Below are positions 2,911 through 62,014 of a stretch of DNA of 64,000 nucleotides, piece by piece (the stretch's first letter is position 1; each line of letters starts with the position of its first letter). The notes below the pieces were generated by a model. That model had not been told where the DNA came from, searched no databases, and worked only from the letters and a program-made list of their open reading frames with translations. This stretch comes from Escherichia coli. GTDB taxonomy: Bacteria > Pseudomonadota > Gammaproteobacteria > Enterobacterales > Enterobacteriaceae. The translations under genes and the position numbers were made by a program. The stretch lies in the NCBI RefSeq assembly GCF_024223415.1, contig NZ_CP100500.1; one strand, given 5' to 3'.

Positions 2911-3669
2911 ATGGATGCACTACAAACACAAACTGTTAATAGTACAACCGCGCCGCAGCCCAACTACATTCCGGGGCTGATTGCGGTGGTCGGGTGTGAT
3001 GGCACCGGTAAATCCACACTGACCACCGACCTGGTGAAATCGCTGCAACAACACTGGCAAACCGAGCGGCGCTATCTGGGGCTGCTCTCCGGCGAAGACG
3101 GCGACAAAATCAAACGATTGCCGTTGGTTGGCGTCTGGCTGGAACGGCGACTGGCGGCCAAATCCTCGAAAACCCAAAGCATGAAAACCAAATCTCCGGC
3201 GCTATGGGCGGCGGTGATTATGTACTGCTTCTCGCTGCGAAGAATGGCGAATCTACGCAAGGTTCAGCGACTGGCGCAAAGTGGCGTTCTGGTGGTCAGC
3301 GATCGCTTCCCGCAGGCTGAAATTTCGGGCTTTTATTATGACGGACCGGGGATTGGCGTCGAACGTGCGACCGGGAAAATCAGCATGTTTCTGGCGCAGC
3401 GCGAACGGCGTTTATACCAAAAAATGGCGCAATATCGCCCGGAATTAATTATTCGCCTGGGCATTGATATTGAGACTGCCATCTCCCGCAAGCCTGACCA
3501 TGACTATGCCGAGCTGCAGGACAAAATCGGCGTCATGTCGACGATTGGTTATAACGGCACAAAAATTCTTGAGATTGATTCCAGAGCGCCCTACAGCGAA
3601 GTGCTGGAACAGGCACAGAAGGCGGTTTCTCTGGTTGCCATCGTTTCTGACCGCCGAAGTTTAACTTAA
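2911..3669 (+). CDS. yghR: P-loop NTPase / putative kinase, YghR-like
   Basis: 252 aa; Walker A IAVVGCDGTGKST; same conserved blocks (DRFPQ, RKPDH) as yghS/yghT. Confidence 0.7.
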   Translation: MDALQTQTVNSTTAPQPNYIPGLIAVVGCDGTGKSTLTTDLVKSLQQHWQTERRYLGLLSGEDGDKIKRLPLVGVWLERRLAAKSSKTQSMKTKSPALWAAVIMYCFSLRRMANLRKVQRLAQSGVLVVSDRFPQAEISGFYYDGPGIGVERATGKISMFLAQRERRLYQKMAQYRPELIIRLGIDIETAISRKPDHDYAELQDKIGVMSTIGYNGTKILEIDSRAPYSEVLEQAQKAVSLVAIVSDRRSLT

Positions 3670-3714: not shown

Positions 3715-5064
3715 TTGGCGGGTTTTAACATCAAACATTGGTTTGCAGATGGCGCGTTTCGCACCATTATTCGCAATAGCGCCTGGTTAGGCTCCAGTAA
3801 TGTCGTGAGCGCCTTGCTGGGGCTGTTGGCGCTCTCGTGTGCCGGTAAAGGGATGACGCCCGCCATGTTTGGCGTACTGGTGATTGTGCAATCGTACGCC
3901 AAGTCGATCAGCGATTTTATTAAGTTTCAGACATGGCAGCTGGTGGTTCAGTACGGAACGCCAGCCTTGACCAACAATAATCCGCAGCAATTTCGCAATG
4001 TCGTCTCATTTTCCTTCTCGCTGGATATCGTCAGCGGCGCGGTGGCGATTGTCGGCGGCATTGCCTTACTGCCATTCCTTTCCCATTCATTAGGTCTGGA
4101 TGACCAAAGCTTTTGGCTGGCGGCGCTGTATTGCACGCTCATTCCTTCAATGGCTTCCTCCACGCCGACCGGCATTCTGCGTGCGGTAGATCGCTTTGAT
4201 TTGATTGCTGTACAGCAGGCGACGAAACCTTTTCTGCGCGCAGCGGGGAGCGTCGCAGCCTGGTATTTTGACTTTGGTTTTGCGGGTTTTGTTATTGCCT
4301 GGTACGTGTCGAATCTGGTTGGCGGCACCATGTACTGGTGGTTTGCCGCGCGCGAATTACGCCGCAGAAATATCCATAACGCCTTCAAATTGAATCTGTT
4401 TGAGTCTGCCCGACACATTAAAGGCGCGTGGAGTTTTGTCTGGTCAACCAACATTGCCCACTCCATCTGGTCGGCGCGTAACTCGTGCAGCACAGTGTTG
4501 GTGGGGATCGTGTTAGGACCCGCTGCCGCCGGGTTATTTAAAATCGCCATGACATTCTTCGACGCCGCCGGAACGCCAGCGGGTTTGCTGGGTAAAAGTT
4601 TTTACCCAGAGGTGATGCGTTTAGATCCGCGCACCACCAGACCGTGGTTGTTAGGTGTGAAGTCCGGTTTACTGGCGGGCGGAATCGGTATTCTGGTGGC
4701 GCTCGCGGTGTTGATCGTCGGCAAGCCGCTCATTTCGCTGGTGTTTGGCGTTAAGTATCTCGAAGCGTATGACCTGATTCAGGTGATGCTGGGCGCAATT
4801 GTGATTTCGATGCTGGGTTTCCCGCAGGAGTCATTGCTATTGATGGCGGGAAAACAGCGCGCTTTTCTCGTGGCGCAAACCATCGCCTCAATCGGCTACA
4901 TCGTATTGCTGTTCATGTTCTGTCATCTGTTTGGTGTGCTGGGAGCAGCGTTTGCTTACTTCGGTGGGCAATGTCTGGACGTGGCGCTCTCGTTAATTCC
5001 AACCTTAAAGGCATTTTTTCAGCGCCATTCCTTGCTTTATAACGCAGCCGGAGAGAAATCCTGA
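3715..5064 (+). CDS. yghQ: Polytopic inner-membrane protein, MOP-type flippase-like (YghQ-like); start codon uncertain
   Basis: Long hydrophobic ORF with multiple predicted TM helices; ORF track start is a TTG so the true start may lie downstream; stop overlaps next gene start (ATGA at 5062-5067). Confidence 0.55.
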   Translation: MAGFNIKHWFADGAFRTIIRNSAWLGSSNVVSALLGLLALSCAGKGMTPAMFGVLVIVQSYAKSISDFIKFQTWQLVVQYGTPALTNNNPQQFRNVVSFSFSLDIVSGAVAIVGGIALLPFLSHSLGLDDQSFWLAALYCTLIPSMASSTPTGILRAVDRFDLIAVQQATKPFLRAAGSVAAWYFDFGFAGFVIAWYVSNLVGGTMYWWFAARELRRRNIHNAFKLNLFESARHIKGAWSFVWSTNIAHSIWSARNSCSTVLVGIVLGPAAAGLFKIAMTFFDAAGTPAGLLGKSFYPEVMRLDPRTTRPWLLGVKSGLLAGGIGILVALAVLIVGKPLISLVFGVKYLEAYDLIQVMLGAIVISMLGFPQESLLLMAGKQRAFLVAQTIASIGYIVLLFMFCHLFGVLGAAFAYFGGQCLDVALSLIPTLKAFFQRHSLLYNAAGEKS

Positions 5065-21707: not shown

Positions 21708-22020
21708 TGATAGTAACTGCGGTAGTACATTTATCCCGGAAATAACCGGAGCGATTATCAGGGTTTAACAATATTAAATACCCGTAGCGCATTACTAGCG
21801 GGCCTAAAACAACAATATGGACATCTTAACGATACTCTGCGCCTGCGTGTGCGGAACAGAAACCCTTACCCGATATACTTGTTATGCCAGAGGTAGCAAT
21901 TGCGTTAGCGGCGTACTGTTGCTGTAAAGTATAACGCCTATATTTTACAGTTCAGTCCTCTTTTGCTTATTACAACCTTAAGTATATCAAGCATATAAAG
22001 ATAATAAGAGACTGAACAAT

Positions 22021-55535: not shown

Positions 55536-56642
55536 TTATACCTCTGAATCACGCATAAAACGATTGATTTCATCTTGCGCATGACGAAGACGATCGGCAA
55601 TGTCAGCAAATCTGTCAGGCTGATGAAAGAACATTCCCCCTTCCACCGCCGTTTGATGATCCCCGGCGATCGCTGCGAACCGTTCAGCATCGTCAGGCAA
55701 CAGTTGCAGGTTTCCGACAATCACCTGAGTAAAATCCACACCCGGCACAGACCAGCGACGTTGCTTCATCTCGACCACATTGCGCATGGCTTCCAGCGTT
55801 TCATAGGGGCTGGCAAAATGATTACTCAGCAGACAATCCACATCATACCAATGGCGTGCCAGTCGGGCCGGATTTGGCGCTTTGGTTTGCGTGCAGAACT
55901 GGTGCAGCGCCGTCAGCTTTTCCCAAAGAATATAACCGGTGTCATAAGCGTTTACGGTCGCGGTGGGTAACTGGAGTGTATCCATGCCTGCGATCCCGGA
56001 CAGATAGCTTACAACAGGCATCAGATCGGTTGGCTTGCCACGATTTCGTCCGCCAAATTCCAGCAGAATATGATCGCGCTGATAGGCCATACTGTCTTCT
56101 TTCACCCGTGGGAAATAGATATCGACTTTTTCGCCACCACTGTCGGGTTCCATTTTTGCTTCAAGGCCCGGAATTTCATAAGTCTGAAAGCGTTGGTTTA
56201 ACCGTTCTGCCAGCGCGTTTGTCCATTCTGTTAAGCGCTCTTGCTGCTGCTCTCTGAACCGGCGATTCTGGCTGTTATTTAGCGTGCTTTGCTCCCATGC
56301 CTGCTGTTCTTCCTCTTCTGAGTGGCCTGCCAGATCGGCCCAGTGAACAGAAAGATCGATATCTTCAGAAAAACGCTCAATCACGTTCCAGCATTTGCTT
56401 AACGCCGTTCCACCTTTAAACGCGACAGATAAACCTCCCAGCAGCTCCTCATTAAAAAGTAACCGAAGGATCTCCGTTACCCAGAGATCCTTTTCCAGAA
56501 AGCTGGCTCCCAGCCCGGAGGGATGCTGCTGCGCCGCGTAAGAGAGGATTTCCTGAAGCTCGCGACGTTGTGATGCGCTCCGGTAGTAATCAAAAATGTC
56601 CATCAGAGCGCCTTTTGCAACGTTATCAGCTGCGAGCGCCAC
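55536..56642 (-). CDS. AbiEii/AbiGii-family nucleotidyltransferase toxin (type IV TA / abortive infection)
   Basis: 368 aa; nucleotidyltransferase block FKGGTALSKCW...RFSEDIDL; overlaps upstream antitoxin-like gene. Confidence 0.7.
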   Translation of the reverse strand: MALAADNVAKGALMDIFDYYRSASQRRELQEILSYAAQQHPSGLGASFLEKDLWVTEILRLLFNEELLGGLSVAFKGGTALSKCWNVIERFSEDIDLSVHWADLAGHSEEEEQQAWEQSTLNNSQNRRFREQQQERLTEWTNALAERLNQRFQTYEIPGLEAKMEPDSGGEKVDIYFPRVKEDSMAYQRDHILLEFGGRNRGKPTDLMPVVSYLSGIAGMDTLQLPTATVNAYDTGYILWEKLTALHQFCTQTKAPNPARLARHWYDVDCLLSNHFASPYETLEAMRNVVEMKQRRWSVPGVDFTQVIVGNLQLLPDDAERFAAIAGDHQTAVEGGMFFHQPDRFADIADRLRHAQDEINRFMRDSEV

Positions 56643-57262
56643 GCGTGAAGCGCAGGCTCATTCATCAACTTTCCGGCAATCTGCCGTGCTTTAGCGGACG
56701 GGATGCTCAGCCGATGAAAAGCATTCTTCAGCGTTTCCAATGGGGTATGTTGCTGATCCAGACTCAGCAAACCGCGCATCAGCTCTCCTTCAGGCCGGTT
56801 CAGCCAACGTAACCGACTTGCTGATTTATGCTGGATCCGTACCCGCTCATTGCCGACGCGGAATTCTCGCGTAGGGCCGTTTGACCAGTAGATGCGTTTA
56901 ACTGGCGCCTGCGTTTGCAGCCCCAGCCGGTAAGCGGCTTCCAGCCCCTGAAGGGTGATTTTGTAACCACGCTCTTTTGCCCATGCGGCGGCAACGGCAT
57001 TGGCGCTGGCAACAACGTTAACAGAGGGGATGTTTTTCAACGGCTTTGGCCGGGAGTAGAAACCGCGTTCAACCCGGACCAGCAGGCCTTCTTTGACCAG
57101 ACGGCTCATTGCCTGTTGTACCGACGCACGGCTTCCCAGCGAGTAAAACCCGCTGATGGAAAAGGGGATGCCACGCTTCATGCGGTGAACCCGCTGGCGG
57201 GCCAGAGCGGCAACAGACATTGATTCTCCTGTACTGACGTTTTCATTGATATGTATTTTCAT
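56603..57262 (-). CDS. AbiEi-family antitoxin / transcriptional regulator (start uncertain, possibly internal Met near 57220)
   Basis: ~200 aa protein with N-terminal wHTH-like region, overlapping the AbiEii gene start by ~40 nt in the typical AbiEi-AbiEii arrangement. Confidence 0.6.
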   Translation of the reverse strand: MKIHINENVSTGESMSVAALARQRVHRMKRGIPFSISGFYSLGSRASVQQAMSRLVKEGLLVRVERGFYSRPKPLKNIPSVNVVASANAVAAAWAKERGYKITLQGLEAAYRLGLQTQAPVKRIYWSNGPTREFRVGNERVRIQHKSASRLRWLNRPEGELMRGLLSLDQQHTPLETLKNAFHRLSIPSAKARQIAGKLMNEPALHAWRSQLITLQKAL

Positions 57263-57418
57263 TATATCCCTTGTGTAGCAAGGAGTCTAACCTAAAAAAT
57301 GTCAGTAATATTCATTCTATGACAATGTTTAAAATGGCAGATATCAGTGAGGTAGCTTGCTGTAGGAAATTCCGACGATAAAATACCCACATACAGCAGG
57401 CGGTGATAAGGATATAGC

Positions 57419-59614
57419 ATGAGCATTCTCTCCATCCACGGCGTTCGCAGTTATCAGGGCGAAAGGCCAGTGGAGTTCGACTTGAGTAAGTATGTCACTC
57501 TTATCTATGGACAAAACGGCTCAGGAAAATCAACCGTTTCTGGTTACTTTTATAAGCATGGTCGTCCAGATTACAGCCAGTGCAGCCTGCGACCTCCACT
57601 GGATATGAACTACCTGGTGTTTAATCAGGAGTATGTAGACGATATTTTCAGCCAACCTTCTCAGCCGGGCATTTTCACTTTAAATAGTGAAAATGCAGAA
57701 ATTAAAACTGAAATAGATGCTCTGGAAGCGGAGAGTAAAGTTTTGTTTGCCCGGCGTGATGCTTTGGACGTGCAAAAACGCGACGTTGAGGGCATGGAAG
57801 AAAGTATTAAAAATGGCTCCGCAAAACAGATTTATAGTTCTACCGCAGAAATCAGAAAAACAGATTTATGGGATTTGATGTCTGGAACTAAACAGACCGA
57901 CAAACTTTTTCAGACCATCCTTGAACACACTGAAGTCGAAGATACTTCGACGCAGGAATTAACCGAAGAACTACACCGACTTGAAGCCAGTAAAGGCAAC
58001 CCTTACGCTTTGCTCGAAGCATTGCCAGCATCCCCTTTGAATGACAATGATATTGCGCTATTGATGCAACCTCTTATTCCAGCAGGTGATAGCCGTCTTG
58101 CTGCCGCAATTAACCAATTGGGCAACATTGACTGGGTGAGGAATGGACAGCAGTGGCTGAGTGATGACATTTGCCCATTTTGTCAAACGCCGATAGATGC
58201 CCGGCAACTTCAACAGGAAATCACTGCCCTTTTTGATACCTCATGGGAAGCTGCGATGGACCAGTTGCGGGAACTTCAGGCGCGATATCAATTCTGGCAC
58301 GATAAACCCGAACATATGCGGCAGTTAATAAAAACGTGTCCGTTAGTTGATCAGGAACATCCTGTTTATCTCTATCTACTTGAACTGGAGCAGGCGTATC
58401 AAAGAAATAAATTGCATATCGATGAGAAATTGACATCACCCTCTGCGTCGATTGCTGTTGAGGATCTTTCTGCTCTGGCTGGCAATGTCTCTGTGCAGAT
58501 AGCCAGTATTAATACAATAATAAGCGAACATAACCGAAAGGCTGAAAATTATCAGACTGAACGGGTTAGACTGAAACAGAGACTACTCAGTCATATCCGA
58601 AAACTGGCTACCGATACGATAATTAACCATGATGAACAACTAGCAGAACTTGCTGAAAAATTGGCAAAATTAACGGTGTCTCGGGATGAAATTACGGCCC
58701 AGCTTGATACGCTGAACGCAATTATTCGCGGTAAATCCAGCCTGATCGTCAATACGCAGGAAACGATTGAACGTATTAATCACAGCTTGGATAGCCTTGG
58801 AATCACTGGATTCCGCATTGCTCCCTATGACGATCGGGATGATTATCGTCTGGTGAGGGAAGGTGAGAACAGCGATACGCCTGTTTTTAGTAGTCTGAGT
58901 GAAGGGGAAAAGACGCTGATTGCTTTTCTCTATTTTCTGGAGACTTGCACAGGGAGAAAAAGTCGTGATGACAATGACCAACGAAAACGTTTAATTGTCA
59001 TTGATGATCCTATATCCAGCCTGTCGCAAAACTATGTTTTTGAAATAGCATCGTTGATCCAGCATCAGGTTATACGTGCCAGAATTGGTGAGAAAGTGAT
59101 TATTCTGACGCACAGCCTGTTTTTCTTTCAGGAGTTACTGCTTTCTGCGGAACGGAAGAAAAGGGCAGCGGGTTCTTGCCCACCAGAATGGACGCTTTAT
59201 CGGGTATCCAAATCCTTACATAGTTCTGCTTCCCTTGTTTCCGAAAAAGAATTACTGAACGACTATCAGGCACTCTGGTATGTCTTACGCCACGCCCAAA
59301 AAGATGACATTGCCAGTGTGGTGATCCCAAATACGATGCGGCAAATCCTTGAATACTATTTTGGTTTTTCGGGGAAAAGTGAGACGCTTCACCGGGCGCT
59401 TGAAACACTGGCGAGCGGGCCTGAAGGTGAACCTGGTTTCCGTATATTTGCTCGTTATCTAAATCGACATTCTCACCAGGATGCCCGCAATATCTCTCTT
59501 CATGAGGGGGCTTCGGTTGAACGCTATCTTACCTGGTTTAAGAAAGTATTCGAGGCGGCAAAGGATGAAGAGCATTACACATCAATGATGGAAAAGACGA
59601 CACAAACGACCTGA
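57419..59614 (+). CDS. RloC/PrrC-like ABC-type ATPase with coiled-coil zinc hook; candidate anticodon nuclease
   Basis: 731 aa; N-terminal Walker A GQNGSGKST, long predicted coiled coil containing CPFCQ (CxxC hook), Walker B/D-loop LIVIDDPISSLS, C-terminal RQILEYYFGF...H block reminiscent of PrrC/RloC nuclease motif. Confidence 0.55.
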   Translation: MSILSIHGVRSYQGERPVEFDLSKYVTLIYGQNGSGKSTVSGYFYKHGRPDYSQCSLRPPLDMNYLVFNQEYVDDIFSQPSQPGIFTLNSENAEIKTEIDALEAESKVLFARRDALDVQKRDVEGMEESIKNGSAKQIYSSTAEIRKTDLWDLMSGTKQTDKLFQTILEHTEVEDTSTQELTEELHRLEASKGNPYALLEALPASPLNDNDIALLMQPLIPAGDSRLAAAINQLGNIDWVRNGQQWLSDDICPFCQTPIDARQLQQEITALFDTSWEAAMDQLRELQARYQFWHDKPEHMRQLIKTCPLVDQEHPVYLYLLELEQAYQRNKLHIDEKLTSPSASIAVEDLSALAGNVSVQIASINTIISEHNRKAENYQTERVRLKQRLLSHIRKLATDTIINHDEQLAELAEKLAKLTVSRDEITAQLDTLNAIIRGKSSLIVNTQETIERINHSLDSLGITGFRIAPYDDRDDYRLVREGENSDTPVFSSLSEGEKTLIAFLYFLETCTGRKSRDDNDQRKRLIVIDDPISSLSQNYVFEIASLIQHQVIRARIGEKVIILTHSLFFFQELLLSAERKKRAAGSCPPEWTLYRVSKSLHSSASLVSEKELLNDYQALWYVLRHAQKDDIASVVIPNTMRQILEYYFGFSGKSETLHRALETLASGPEGEPGFRIFARYLNRHSHQDARNISLHEGASVERYLTWFKKVFEAAKDEEHYTSMMEKTTQTT

Positions 59615-61132
59615 TTAACAACAGAAGAGGACCATCACCCCGGGATTAACCGTTAGCAGTTCGGCAAAGAGCGCATGTGCTGGCACACGTGCTCCCAGCG
59701 ACCAAAACGGAAACGCAGATACTGGTGAACCAGCACAGTTTTCTGTTTCATACCGGGCTCCTTTCTTTCGACGCCGACAAGCTGTCGGCGAGCCCCGTAC
59801 ACCTCGTACGAGCGTGACTATCGTGTAGAGGCTAAGGATCCCGGGGGATGGCTTCCGCTATCGTAGGCGATTTCATTTGATGATTCAATCTTTGCTTTGG
59901 ATAACAATTAATTGAGATGGTCGTATTTTAGTATTAGCACTGTATGTCTTAGCTATAGTGCTGCTGAAATGACCAATTCGGGAACCGTGATGGTTTCCTG
60001 GAAACTCTCTTGCTTATTTTACGATGCTGGCCGATTATCACAAAACGTTGCTTAAACGCTGATTGGATATGGTGCTTTGTGGCAGTCATTCGCTTGTCTG
60101 ACGTTGCCATGGCTTACATTTGATGTAGCCAATGTAGAAGCCGCTTGGTGAATTGTTCTATGACATGGTCTACTACTTCGTTGTGGAAAATGAAGATGCG
60201 GTACCGGGTATGTACCATTGATGGTGAGAGGCTTATCGACGAATGGACCGTACGATATTGCTTGGCTGGAAAGGTGTGTGAAGCATTGTAGATTTACATT
60301 CACAAAATCGCGAGAAAATCTACAAACAACTCTATTTCCAGAAAAATGAGTTTCCCCTTTCTGCGCCAGAAATAAAGGCGTAATCTCCCTCCTGCACTAT
60401 GTTGTCGTGGACAACTCCCTTGCTTCATGGTCTGCAAGAAGCCCCTGATTTATCAGGATGACCAGCCCTTTCTACCGGTACGACCTCCGCAATACCGGAA
60501 CGCGAAAGCGTTTGAGGCTAAGAGTACATACACATGAACGGCTCCATCGTCATCGCTTAACGGCAACAGCCTTCACCGGCTGAACGGCCTCTCTTTGCCG
60601 GAATTTTCCTGGCCCACTTATACCCTGCTGATAACCAGCGCCTTTTTACATGACGGGCTGCGGCCTGCATTGCCGAAGGCTTTGCTGCCGCGTGACCGTC
60701 ATCCTGCACCAGAGTGTTAATTTTCAGACCCTGCGCCAGACCAGGGCGTCAGTCGCTCACGCGCAGTGAGAGACTGACGCCCGCAGAAATTTCCATCTGC
60801 ACCAGTCATATCAACTGTTCCAGCCACAGGCGAGCTTCTGACGTCGCTTTTCAGCATTTATCTCAACCATTCATTCACAAAAGGAGAACATGAGCCAGTA
60901 CCGGAGGAGGACCACCAGGACGGTCCGGGGGATGACCAGCTCACGCTGGCGGCTGCTCTGAGAGCACAACCGATACCCCGCAAAACCTCAACAGCCGTCG
61001 CCCCGGCGCTCAGGTACTGCTCGCAGCCCCGACAAAAATCAGGGGCTATCGGCCTACGCGCCGGGGAAAGCTGTATCCGTTGTTTGTTGTGGTTTTGTGA
61101 AAATCAGGAGCGAGAGAAGAGGAAAACGTAAA

Positions 61133-62014
61133 ATGGGTATGCTGGAAAGAGAGATGAAAAACCTGGCGCGGCAGGCTGGCGGGTCGCACAAGACTGTCCA
61201 TGACCGTATCGCCATGGCAGGACGTTTCTGCGAACGCCTGATGGAACTGAACGTTCAGATACGCTATGTCCACCATTTAAAGGCGAAGCATATTGAGGCG
61301 TATATTCAGATGCGGCTGGCGCAGGGGATTCAGAAAAATACGCTGCATAACGAAACGGCGGCTATCCGTAAAATCCTGACGCAGGCCGGGCGCGAAAAGC
61401 TGGCGCAGAGTGAACGGATATCGAATAAATCGCTGGGGCTGGCTGGCGTATCCCGCAATGGTACGCGGAAAGCCATCACGCCGGAATATTATCAACAGAT
61501 GGCAGAGGCTGCCCGGCTGAAAGATGCGGGGCTGGCGGCGGCGCTGGAACTGACGCGGCTGATGGGGCTACGCTCTCAGGAGGCAGTACGCTGTTCCGGT
61601 TCGCTGAAAACCTGGCGCGAAGCACTGGAGAAAGGTGATACCCGGCTAACCGTGGTACTCGGTACCAAAGGTGGACGGCCCCGTGACACGATTATTCAGG
61701 ATACTGGCGCAGTTAAACAGGCGCTGGATAAGGCCATCGTGGTGGCAGAACGGCGCAACGGCAGGCTGATTGATGCGGCGAGCCTTAAACAGGCAATGAA
61801 ATACTGGCGCAACCAGACTTTGCGTATGGGGCTGACGGGCAAATACTCCCCGCACTCACTGCGCTACGCCTGGGCGCAGGACGATATCTGCCGGTATCTG
61901 GCGCAGGGGTTCAGCGAAAAAGAAGCGCTGGCGATGGTGGCAATGGACCTAGGGCATGGCGACGGGCGTGGTCGCTGGGTGAAGCAGGTGTATGCACGGA
62001 ATGATGAAGCGTGA
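61133..62014 (+). CDS. Small tyrosine-recombinase/integrase-like protein
   Basis: ATG at 61133 preceded by a GAGG RBS; C-terminal HSLRYAWAQ box and RGR region resemble catalytic boxes of phage integrase family; unusually short. Confidence 0.45.
   Translation: MGMLEREMKNLARQAGGSHKTVHDRIAMAGRFCERLMELNVQIRYVHHLKAKHIEAYIQMRLAQGIQKNTLHNETAAIRKILTQAGREKLAQSERISNKSLGLAGVSRNGTRKAITPEYYQQMAEAARLKDAGLAAALELTRLMGLRSQEAVRCSGSLKTWREALEKGDTRLTVVLGTKGGRPRDTIIQDTGAVKQALDKAIVVAERRNGRLIDAASLKQAMKYWRNQTLRMGLTGKYSPHSLRYAWAQDDICRYLAQGFSEKEALAMVAMDLGHGDGRGRWVKQVYARNDEA

Follow-up and report, generated by a model that had tools for sequence, protein, structure and literature searches.

The EFASI RNA is a candidate structured RNA reportedly introduced by Weinberg et al. 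in 2017, and the STAXI motif is said to go back to Weinberg et al. in 2010. In the Rfam text as quoted in PMC12370729, EFASI stands for "Enterobacteriaceae, Frequently Around STAXI and Integrases"; the quoted lines place it several hundred bp 3′ of STAXI and upstream of integrase genes, and give its function as unknown. The window analyzed here is a stretch of 64,000 nucleotides (nt) of Escherichia coli DNA (contig NZ_CP100500.1), to which all positions refer. Within it, an apparently blank gap separates the stop of an AAA_13 ATPase gene (57419–59614) from the start of an Integrase_1-family tyrosine recombinase gene at 61133, and an initial annotation of its greater part (59640–61096) had suggested degraded genes, a regulatory operator or small RNAs. 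An Rfam covariance search identified EFASI (RF02957) on the + strand at 60890–61023, with 112.7 bits and an E value of 1.7e-23 over the full model (1–133), the gathering score being 51.2. Only RNA has support among the three options, and a free small RNA (sRNA) is not the form that we favour. With moderate confidence, we read the module as a long structured 5′ leader (approximately 60390–61132) that acts in cis on the recombinase gene.

The EFASI fold consists of a stem, P1, around a multi-stem core, with an invariant unpaired ACCUCAAC. It was evaluated on 77 distinct sequences in an alignment fitted to the Rfam model. The cells of the Rfam fold are paired in 93.4% of cases, compared with 30–45% in slid controls, and compensatory changes occur at 25 of the 35 pairs. 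When one constant C.A position is set aside, 70 G.U cells are counted against about 18 A.C cells, and folding of the + (mRNA-sense) strand is therefore favoured. GNRA and UUCG loops are found among the variants of the module. A segment of 680 nt folds more stably than its shuffles, with z-scores of −4.07 for the + strand and −4.25 for the − strand.

The gene that follows (61133–62014, + strand) is intact and encodes an Integrase_1/Phage_int_SAM_2 tyrosine recombinase of 293 amino acids (aa), with Pfam E values of 2.7e-58 and 1.5e-34. Six residues, R147, K179, H241, R244, H275 and Y287, do not vary among 35 homologues, whose identity goes down to 32%, and we take them to be the catalytic set by the known Xer/Cre pattern. 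The AlphaFold model (predicted local distance difference test, pLDDT, 90.3) shows a two-domain Xer/Cre-like fold with no arm-binding or other extra domain. Its best structural matches are XerA, lambda Int (core and catalytic domains), IntI, XerH, Cre and Tn1549 Int.

EFASI ends 109 nt upstream of the start codon of this gene in the window, and the same arrangement recurs wherever it could be looked for in Enterobacterales. Loci were gathered through the protein alone, with one genome per GTDB species, giving 79 loci with 57–90% protein identity. They come from Escherichia, Klebsiella, Citrobacter, Salmonella, Brenneria, Pectobacterium, Dickeya, Serratia, Xenorhabdus, Photorhabdus and other genera, and also from Yersinia pestis. 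A covariance model built from the window EFASI and the Rfam structure found the RNA in 80 of 84 sources; in the four misses the gene stands at the very start of the fetched DNA. All 80 testable Enterobacterales loci carry EFASI on the strand of the gene and just upstream of it, and its 3′ end lies 54–117 nt before the start codon (78 loci). Homologues on Pantoea and Klebsiella plasmids (47–50% identity) have both STAXI and EFASI upstream, too. No EFASI was found with the Thiothrix and Paraburkholderia homologues (32–38% identity). Of the 178 E. coli genomes with any match, 161 have EFASI and the opening 288 nt of the gene in one contiguous piece; no orphan EFASI was seen in E. coli, the remaining matches being too diverged to judge. 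Conserved structure extends at least 150 nt upstream of EFASI in all lineages.

The pairing does not stop at the 3′ end of the Rfam model. Directly beyond it lies a variable hairpin (61025–61047, + strand; AGCCCC-N11-GGGGCU), and then the 3′ strand of a 9-bp long-range helix that is missing from the model, in which CCCCGGCGC (61001–61009) pairs with GCGCCGGGG (61058–61066), again on the + strand. The 5′ strand of this helix is drawn in Rfam as conserved but unpaired. A gap hairpin of unrelated sequence stands between EFASI and the 3′ strand in all lineages except that of the L005 type. The helix is present in 78 of 78 loci, with 7.5–9 of 9 pairs compared with a shuffled mean of 6.3. When the sequences were aligned with MAFFT independently of structure, 94% of the helix cells pair, against 29–55% in slid controls, and three pairs show compensatory changes from C-G to U-A (or G-C), in 27, 18 and 13 sequences. 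P1 encloses only the 5′ strand, so that the helix either combines with P1 into an H-type pseudoknot, joined by a linker of two nucleotides, or replaces P1 in an alternative fold.

What follows the helix differs by lineage, and its 3′ strand ends 15–74 nt before the start codon across the loci. Six loci of the Sodalis, Acerihabitans and Brenneria types have GAGG 4–5 nt and AUG 15–16 nt after the helix. The gene there must be transcribed through EFASI, because so short a distance cannot hold a terminator and a new promoter. The L005-type lineage of E. coli has a GC-rich helix of 9–10 bp followed by UGUUUGUUUUUUG, 27–37 nt before the AUG, an arrangement that by its sequence resembles an intrinsic terminator. 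At least six U residues within 12 nt after the helix are found in only 14 of the 78 loci, and the helix with a U-tract was rejected as a general terminator on this count. An sRNA gene closed by an intrinsic terminator in all lineages was likewise discarded, the AUG coming within 15–16 nt in the six loci mentioned. As for the window itself, no + strand terminator was called 3′ of EFASI, and no promoter-like site was found between EFASI and the recombinase gene.

A cis-acting leader is favoured because the conserved fold joins a ribosome-binding site or a terminator-like tract, depending on the lineage. According to the model that we propose, the mRNA of the Integrase_1 recombinase would begin with a 5′ leader made from 60293–61132 and acting in cis, in which the EFASI core and the new helix would set the amount of recombinase made. 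A ribosome-binding site abutting the helix would place the control on translation initiation, and a U-tract after the helix would place it on transcription read-through. The remainder of the gap, 59640–60292, would be a non-functional spacer made of about 300 nt of ATPase 3′ flank and then about 360 nt of filler, which would remain from the replacement of genes seen in related islands. A helix combined with alternative platforms appears to follow the pattern of riboswitch-like and other cis-acting leaders.

The division of the gap into two halves emerged from a megablast of the stretch against 5,426 complete E. coli genomes. Just 20 of them contain the full length, with 99.7–99.8% identity over the entire 1.5 kb. 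The right part, from about 60293, is found at approximately 93% identity in more than 100 further E. coli genomes, and portions of it occur in 810 genomes under more sensitive settings. The left part gave no match to plasmids and phages. Its first segment (59615–59935, + strand), which does not belong to the conserved leader, is 97.2% identical 3′ of the same ATPase gene in 11 more E. coli genomes, which then diverge; it carries inverted repeats forming hairpins at 59676–59737, followed by GTTTTCTGTTTC, and at 59773–59791. The second segment (59936–60292), of lower GC content (0.41–0.45), occurs solely in the 20 near-identical genomes. Related islands hold hypothetical, helix-turn-helix (HTH), HigA and MazEF (toxin-antitoxin) genes at this position, and, as comparison of the islands suggests, the filler would replace them; tblastn revealed no protein-level remnant of those genes in 59936–60292. 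Homology with other genomes begins at 60293, from which a conserved non-coding module of approximately 840 nt (60293–61132, + strand) runs to the start of the Integrase_1 gene.

The absence of convincing open reading frames (ORFs), as originally described, is borne out. The longest ORF between the ATPase stop and the recombinase start has 83 aa (60052–60303, minus strand) and the remaining ones have at most 59 aa. The nine largest gave no Pfam match at E ≤ 1, a homologue search of 5.8 billion proteins returned nothing for the 83-aa ORF, and PGAP (RefSeq) called no coding sequence in the stretch in the 20 near-identical genomes. When 18 neighbour proteins of related islands were compared with 59400–61200 by tblastn, no genuine pseudogene remnant was found. 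All matches obtained trace to RefSeq "hypothetical proteins" lying across the conserved non-coding module in differing strands and frames, and were judged to be spurious gene calls reflecting nucleotide conservation of the module. A protein-coding gene or pseudogene was rejected on the tblastn, Pfam and homologue searches, in which the proposed degraded genes find no support either. Calls of "hypothetical protein" over the leader are seen in L003 (5074–5223), L004 (4951–5373) and L005 (5353–5706). Their products are rich in Arg and Ala, of low complexity, and lie on differing strands and frames; these look like spurious calls on GC-rich structured RNA.

The one feature singled out in the initial annotation, a long palindrome, also exists in part. 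A 10-nt inverted repeat, TTGTAGATTT-N20-AAATCTACAA (60286–60295 and 60316–60325; 10/10 complementary with a 20-nt spacer), is present, but its arms had been placed one base out of register, and it is not long: a much stronger hairpin, of 17 bp, lies at 60744–60782. Shuffling the 1.46-kb region yields one or more perfect 10-nt inverted repeats (spacer 3–50 nt) in 4% of cases, and a shuffled window of 64 kb is expected to hold about 3.7. Chance alone would therefore bring such repeats before anyone who reads through 64 kb. The repeat straddles the breakpoint between filler and module: lineage-specific DNA holds the left arm and a conserved AAAATCNACAAAC motif the right one. It is absent from relatives that share the module of the right arm, for example L002 and L005. 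It probably arose by chance, when the rearrangement that made the junction brought the two arms together; by this comparison of sequences it appears incidental and not the functional feature. A regulatory operator finds no support in this comparison.

The module starts with block A (60293–60399, + strand), which holds AAAATCNACAAACAAC, TTTCCCCTTTCTGCGCCAG and a −10-like CGTAAT (60379–60384), and which is conserved at 75–92% in about 30 loci from several genera. CGTAAT directly precedes the STAXI-like element described below, and canonical STAXI elsewhere has better promoter-like hexamers at this place; the promoter assignment in block A is weak. Scans for sigma-70 promoters in the window and three relatives gave hits no more numerous than in shuffles. 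One promoter hit, TTGACT-18-AATATT, stands directly before STAXI in L087. Many loci (L003, L012, L016, L018, L020, L026, L029, L031, L036, L038, L040, L042–L045) have a conserved GGGAGAAGGCAAGCGAAGCGCGGCAG segment, with a long hairpin before it, about 45 nt 5′ of block A. The window, L002 and L005 lack it, and the module may ancestrally have reached further 5′ than 60293. CTGCRCCAG occurs in four direct copies in the leader (60361–60369, 60704–60712, 60731–60739 and 60797–60805). Copies stand at conserved offsets in 28–39 related loci, with up to four in Enterobacteriaceae and the Brenneria group, and none in the Pectobacterium, Yersinia and Xenorhabdus lineages; they could be protein-binding sites or helix strands.

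Following block A, a degenerate STAXI-like element (60400–60545, + strand) lies 345–490 nt upstream of EFASI, as a sub-threshold match only. Its 5′ part, with the first hairpin (UGUUGUCGUGGACAAC) and the first unit, agrees with the motif, and the later units are decayed. Rfam STAXI (RF01728) scores 18.2 bits in the window (E 0.12 in a 651-nt search), compared with a gathering score of 40.5, and gave no match at E ≤ 1 in an 8-kb Rfam search; in the alignment the first unit fits well and the later ones have low posterior probability. By Rfam's criterion the element is not a member, and its sequence marks it as a probable decayed relative of STAXI. A putative second pseudoknot at 60470–60520, CCGGUA/UACCGG with CCUC/GAGG, was recognized by eye only. 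The homologous position scores 42.0 bits in L016 (Klebsiella spallanzanii) and 28.5 in L004, and STAXI reaches 46–93 bits in Serratia, Prodigiosinella, Yersinia, Pantoea and Klebsiella loci; it exceeds the threshold upstream of EFASI in L016, L056, L060, L080, L087 and L088.

Other RNAs keep company with the module elsewhere. At the place where others have STAXI upstream of EFASI, L050 (Affinibrenneria) carries a radC RNA motif (3358–3492, 47.1 bits); the radC motif and STAXI may be interchangeable upstream modules. On the Pantoea plasmid of L087, a second strong STAXI (4443–4593, 83.6 bits) is located 3′ of the recombinase gene and precedes hypothetical genes on the same strand that end in a zincin-like (ArdC-type) gene, which gives STAXI the look of an inter-gene repeat in a leading-region-like array. 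Many genera have C4 antisense RNA beside the module, frequently together with isrK and the c4-a1b1 target motif, either 1.3–2.3 kb upstream of EFASI (L003–L005, L007, L009, L013, L016, L020, L031, L044) or about 1.1 kb downstream of the gene start (L056, L060, L073, L080). The lineage of the window has lost the C4 part.

Between the STAXI-like element and EFASI, RNAalifold on 38 sequences gave two small hairpins with co-varying stems (60599–60611 and 60626–60640, + strand), the second of which was flagged as terminator-like. Block C (60653–60713, + strand) is an extended hairpin of about 60 nt, nearly invariant, ACGGGCUGCGGCCUGCAUUGCCGAAGGCUUUGCUGCCGCGUGACCG...CUGCACCAGA, with predicted pairing at 60654–60698 and an apical loop that is GCAA, GUAA or GACA (GNRA type) in relatives; its core motif is found in 34 of the 77 loci, and the hairpin belongs to the module in Enterobacteriaceae and the Brenneria group, as do further small co-varying hairpins. 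The 17-bp stem of the long hairpin (60744–60782, + strand) follows. Its base, GCGUCA(C/G)...(C/G)UGACGC, is conserved and its distal stem co-varies. The conserved base GCGUCACUUU...AAAGUGACGC, as the GCGTYAC/GTGACGC pair, is present at a fixed offset in 68 of 77 loci, 100–150 nt upstream of EFASI, and the window has the compensated variant GCGUCAG/CUGACGC. A conserved TCTGAC (60837–60842, + strand) stands 3′ of this hairpin. Finally, a near-invariant Shine-Dalgarno-like AGGAG (60882–60886, + strand) lies 3–9 nt before EFASI. A leader peptide starting at the NUG after AGGAG was rejected, as the start may be AUG, UUG, GUG, CUG or AAG and the frame may have as few as 2 codons or more than 50. Pairing of AGGAG with a conserved UCUCCCUCCU (60378–60387) was also rejected, the partner being missing in most lineages.

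On the other side of the Integrase_1 gene, and convergent with it, lies a P4-type integrase (62196–63502, − strand) with Arm-DNA-bind_3, Phage_int_M and Phage_integrase domains. Its reading frame is broken into two ORFs that overlap, 63044–63502 and 62196–63047, and RefSeq labels the gene "frameshifted" in a near-identical genome. As read from these frames, the P4-type integrase of the island itself has probably lost its function, in contrast to the small Integrase_1 gene, which is intact. The parallel with P4-like satellites that had been drawn is loose: a P4-type integrase does sit in the island, but the module belongs to a different, Xer/Cre-like recombinase gene and is also found on plasmids. 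Related islands share the order tRNA-Asn or tRNA-Asp, P4-type integrase, Integrase_1 gene, EFASI and toxin-antitoxin genes. They abut the tRNA gene, and ARAGORN found no tRNA in the 64-kb window. In a near-identical genome (L001, 16158–23535), a second CP4-type island comes after the integrase, with CbtA/CbeA, RadC, antirestriction and DUF932 genes, and the islands appear to be arranged in tandem. Defence-like cargo adjoins the stretch on its other side (window 56603–59614 and upstream; L001 1–12015), consisting of a DUF6088/AbiEii pair, the AAA_13 ATPase, a TerB-N protein, an ATP-binding protein and a DEAD/DEAH helicase. Elsewhere in the window, Rfam hits above threshold are C0719 RNA (21721–21942, − strand, 299 bits) and the Hfq-binding RNA isrN (42025–42161, + strand, 72.2 bits).

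Several observations weigh against a cis-acting leader. No convincing sigma-70 promoter was found for it, the scans being no better than chance; transcription at this locus we infer, together with folding as RNA and not as single-stranded DNA, co-transcription with the gene and regulation. The folding z-score is uninformative as a strand test, both strands being alike, and the EFASI covariation comes from an alignment fitted to the model. One uniform mechanism is unlikely, given a helix-to-AUG spread of 15–74 nt. ACCUCAAC was rejected as an anti-Shine-Dalgarno, its longest complementary run averaging 4.81 nt compared with 4.67 nt in shuffled sequences; it is without complementarity to the ribosome-binding region, so that no simple sequestration is visible. 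Rfam types EFASI as "Gene; sRNA", and the curators' description, as quoted in PMC12370729, has a "likely function in trans". EFASI would then be an independent sRNA with its own promoter, terminated before the gene, and its adjacency to the gene would reflect shared mobility. The terminator-like UGUUUGUUUUUUG after the helix in the L005-type lineage suits such an RNA, as does its occurrence in vesicle RNA: both EFASI and STAXI RNA were detected in E. coli vesicles by reverse transcription quantitative PCR (PMC12370729). Nevertheless, we consider a free sRNA unlikely. An independent RNA gene is hard to reconcile with a placement and strand that are constant with respect to the start codon in all 80 testable loci, or with the several lineages in which 15–21 nt and no U-tract separate helix and AUG, where the gene must be transcribed through EFASI. 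There is, moreover, no promoter-like site directly upstream of EFASI, and conserved structure continues for at least 150 nt on its 5′ side in all lineages.

Tyrosine recombinases are known to act on folded single strands, and the folds could also form in single-stranded DNA, for instance during conjugative transfer, where they would prime synthesis, act as a single-strand promoter or offer the adjacent recombinase a folded site. The basal stem of the long hairpin is conserved in sequence as if recognized by a protein, and on the MPF_G-typed Pantoea plasmid the module stands in the one-directional array ending in the zincin-like gene. The possibility has been raised for STAXI by Weinberg et al. 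(PMC2864571), and STAXI is enriched in MPF_G conjugative elements (PMC5587801). GNRA and UUCG loops, on the other hand, are RNA-stabilizing motifs, an argument made for STAXI in the same paper (PMC2864571). The wobble pairs of the G.U type favour the mRNA-sense strand, whereas a single-strand promoter for the gene would, to judge from the F-plasmid Frpo model, need the template (antisense) strand to fold. As a DNA site needs no fixed distance or orientation to a start codon either, we hold a role in single-stranded DNA to be improbable. Other orphan motifs of the Breaker laboratory that lie beside mobile-element enzymes proved to be RNA cofactors, and the RNA, about 330–840 nt from the gene's own leader, could similarly be a working partner of the recombinase, as scaffold, guide or site-selecting subunit. 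The obligatory pairing of RNA and gene across 47–100% protein identity, on chromosomes and plasmids, is in agreement with this, and so are the large ornate fold and the invariant unpaired ACCUCAAC and CCGCAA, which have no detected partner within the RNA or the mRNA. The enzyme would be the first RNA-dependent tyrosine recombinase; we know of no tyrosine recombinase that uses RNA. The ordinary two-domain protein model offers no extra domain for an RNA, the unpaired stretches are invariant, unlike variable programmable guides, and the Thiothrix and Paraburkholderia homologues do without EFASI, all of which makes a partnership very improbable. Least credible is the reading first given to the stretch, degraded genes with the 10-bp palindrome as an operator. 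Gene loss did occur, as the hypothetical, HTH and toxin-antitoxin genes held there by related islands indicate; the palindrome is mildly unexpected in 1.46 kb by its 4% of shuffles, and by reading of the sequence it overlaps a promoter-like arrangement, TTTACA-N15-GAAAAT. Against this stand the lack of any neighbour-gene remnant, of a Pfam match and of a homologue for the largest ORF, and the absence of the palindrome from the relatives that share the module of its right arm.

These results explain the apparent blank as half debris and half a known RNA module of the neighbouring recombinase gene. The cluster of motifs is already known and ordinary for such islands. The strict linkage in 80 of 80 loci, the missing helix, the conserved upstream hairpin and the argument for a role in cis are modest additions to it. 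With them, EFASI (2017) and STAXI (2010), two orphan motifs, are brought into a concrete and testable leader model for a Xer/Cre-like recombinase found in genomic islands. Were the control to respond to a signal, it would bear on when islands at tRNA genes rearrange or move.

Compared with the systems already described, the window copy of EFASI (RF02957) is the same in sequence, fold and context, and is indistinguishable from other members. The locus differs from the Rfam description in the strict tie to the Integrase_1 family at 54–117 nt, in the pairing of the "unpaired" CYCYGGCGY with a segment 18–40 nt past the 3′ end of the model, and in the conserved hairpin and AGGAG box upstream of it; a role in cis is more likely than the trans role given by Rfam. 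With STAXI (RF01728), the window shares the position, the first hairpin UGUUGUC...GACAAC and the first pseudoknot unit, but its copy stays at 18.2 against 40.5 bits and the later repeat units are unrecognizable. Integron attC sites (IntI) and the attP of CTX phage (XerCD) likewise have co-varying hairpins with conserved stem bases beside a tyrosine recombinase gene, and IntI of the attC system is among the structural matches of the recombinase; the fold in the window, however, is multi-branched and tied to a start codon, and its wobble asymmetry and GNRA/UUCG loops point to sense RNA. The bridge RNA of IS110 and the omega-RNA of IscB (formerly HEARO) are similarly structured RNAs of more than 150 nt directly 5′ of a mobile-element DNA enzyme gene that they always accompany, whereas the enzyme here is a tyrosine recombinase and the unpaired segments are invariant, not element-specific. 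Leaders of the SAM-II and preQ1-II class also have a folded core with the 3′ strand of a helix or pseudoknot by the ribosome-binding site or a U-tract. The leader in the window is far longer (about 740 nt) and multi-domain, and may be likened to them in its predicted fold.

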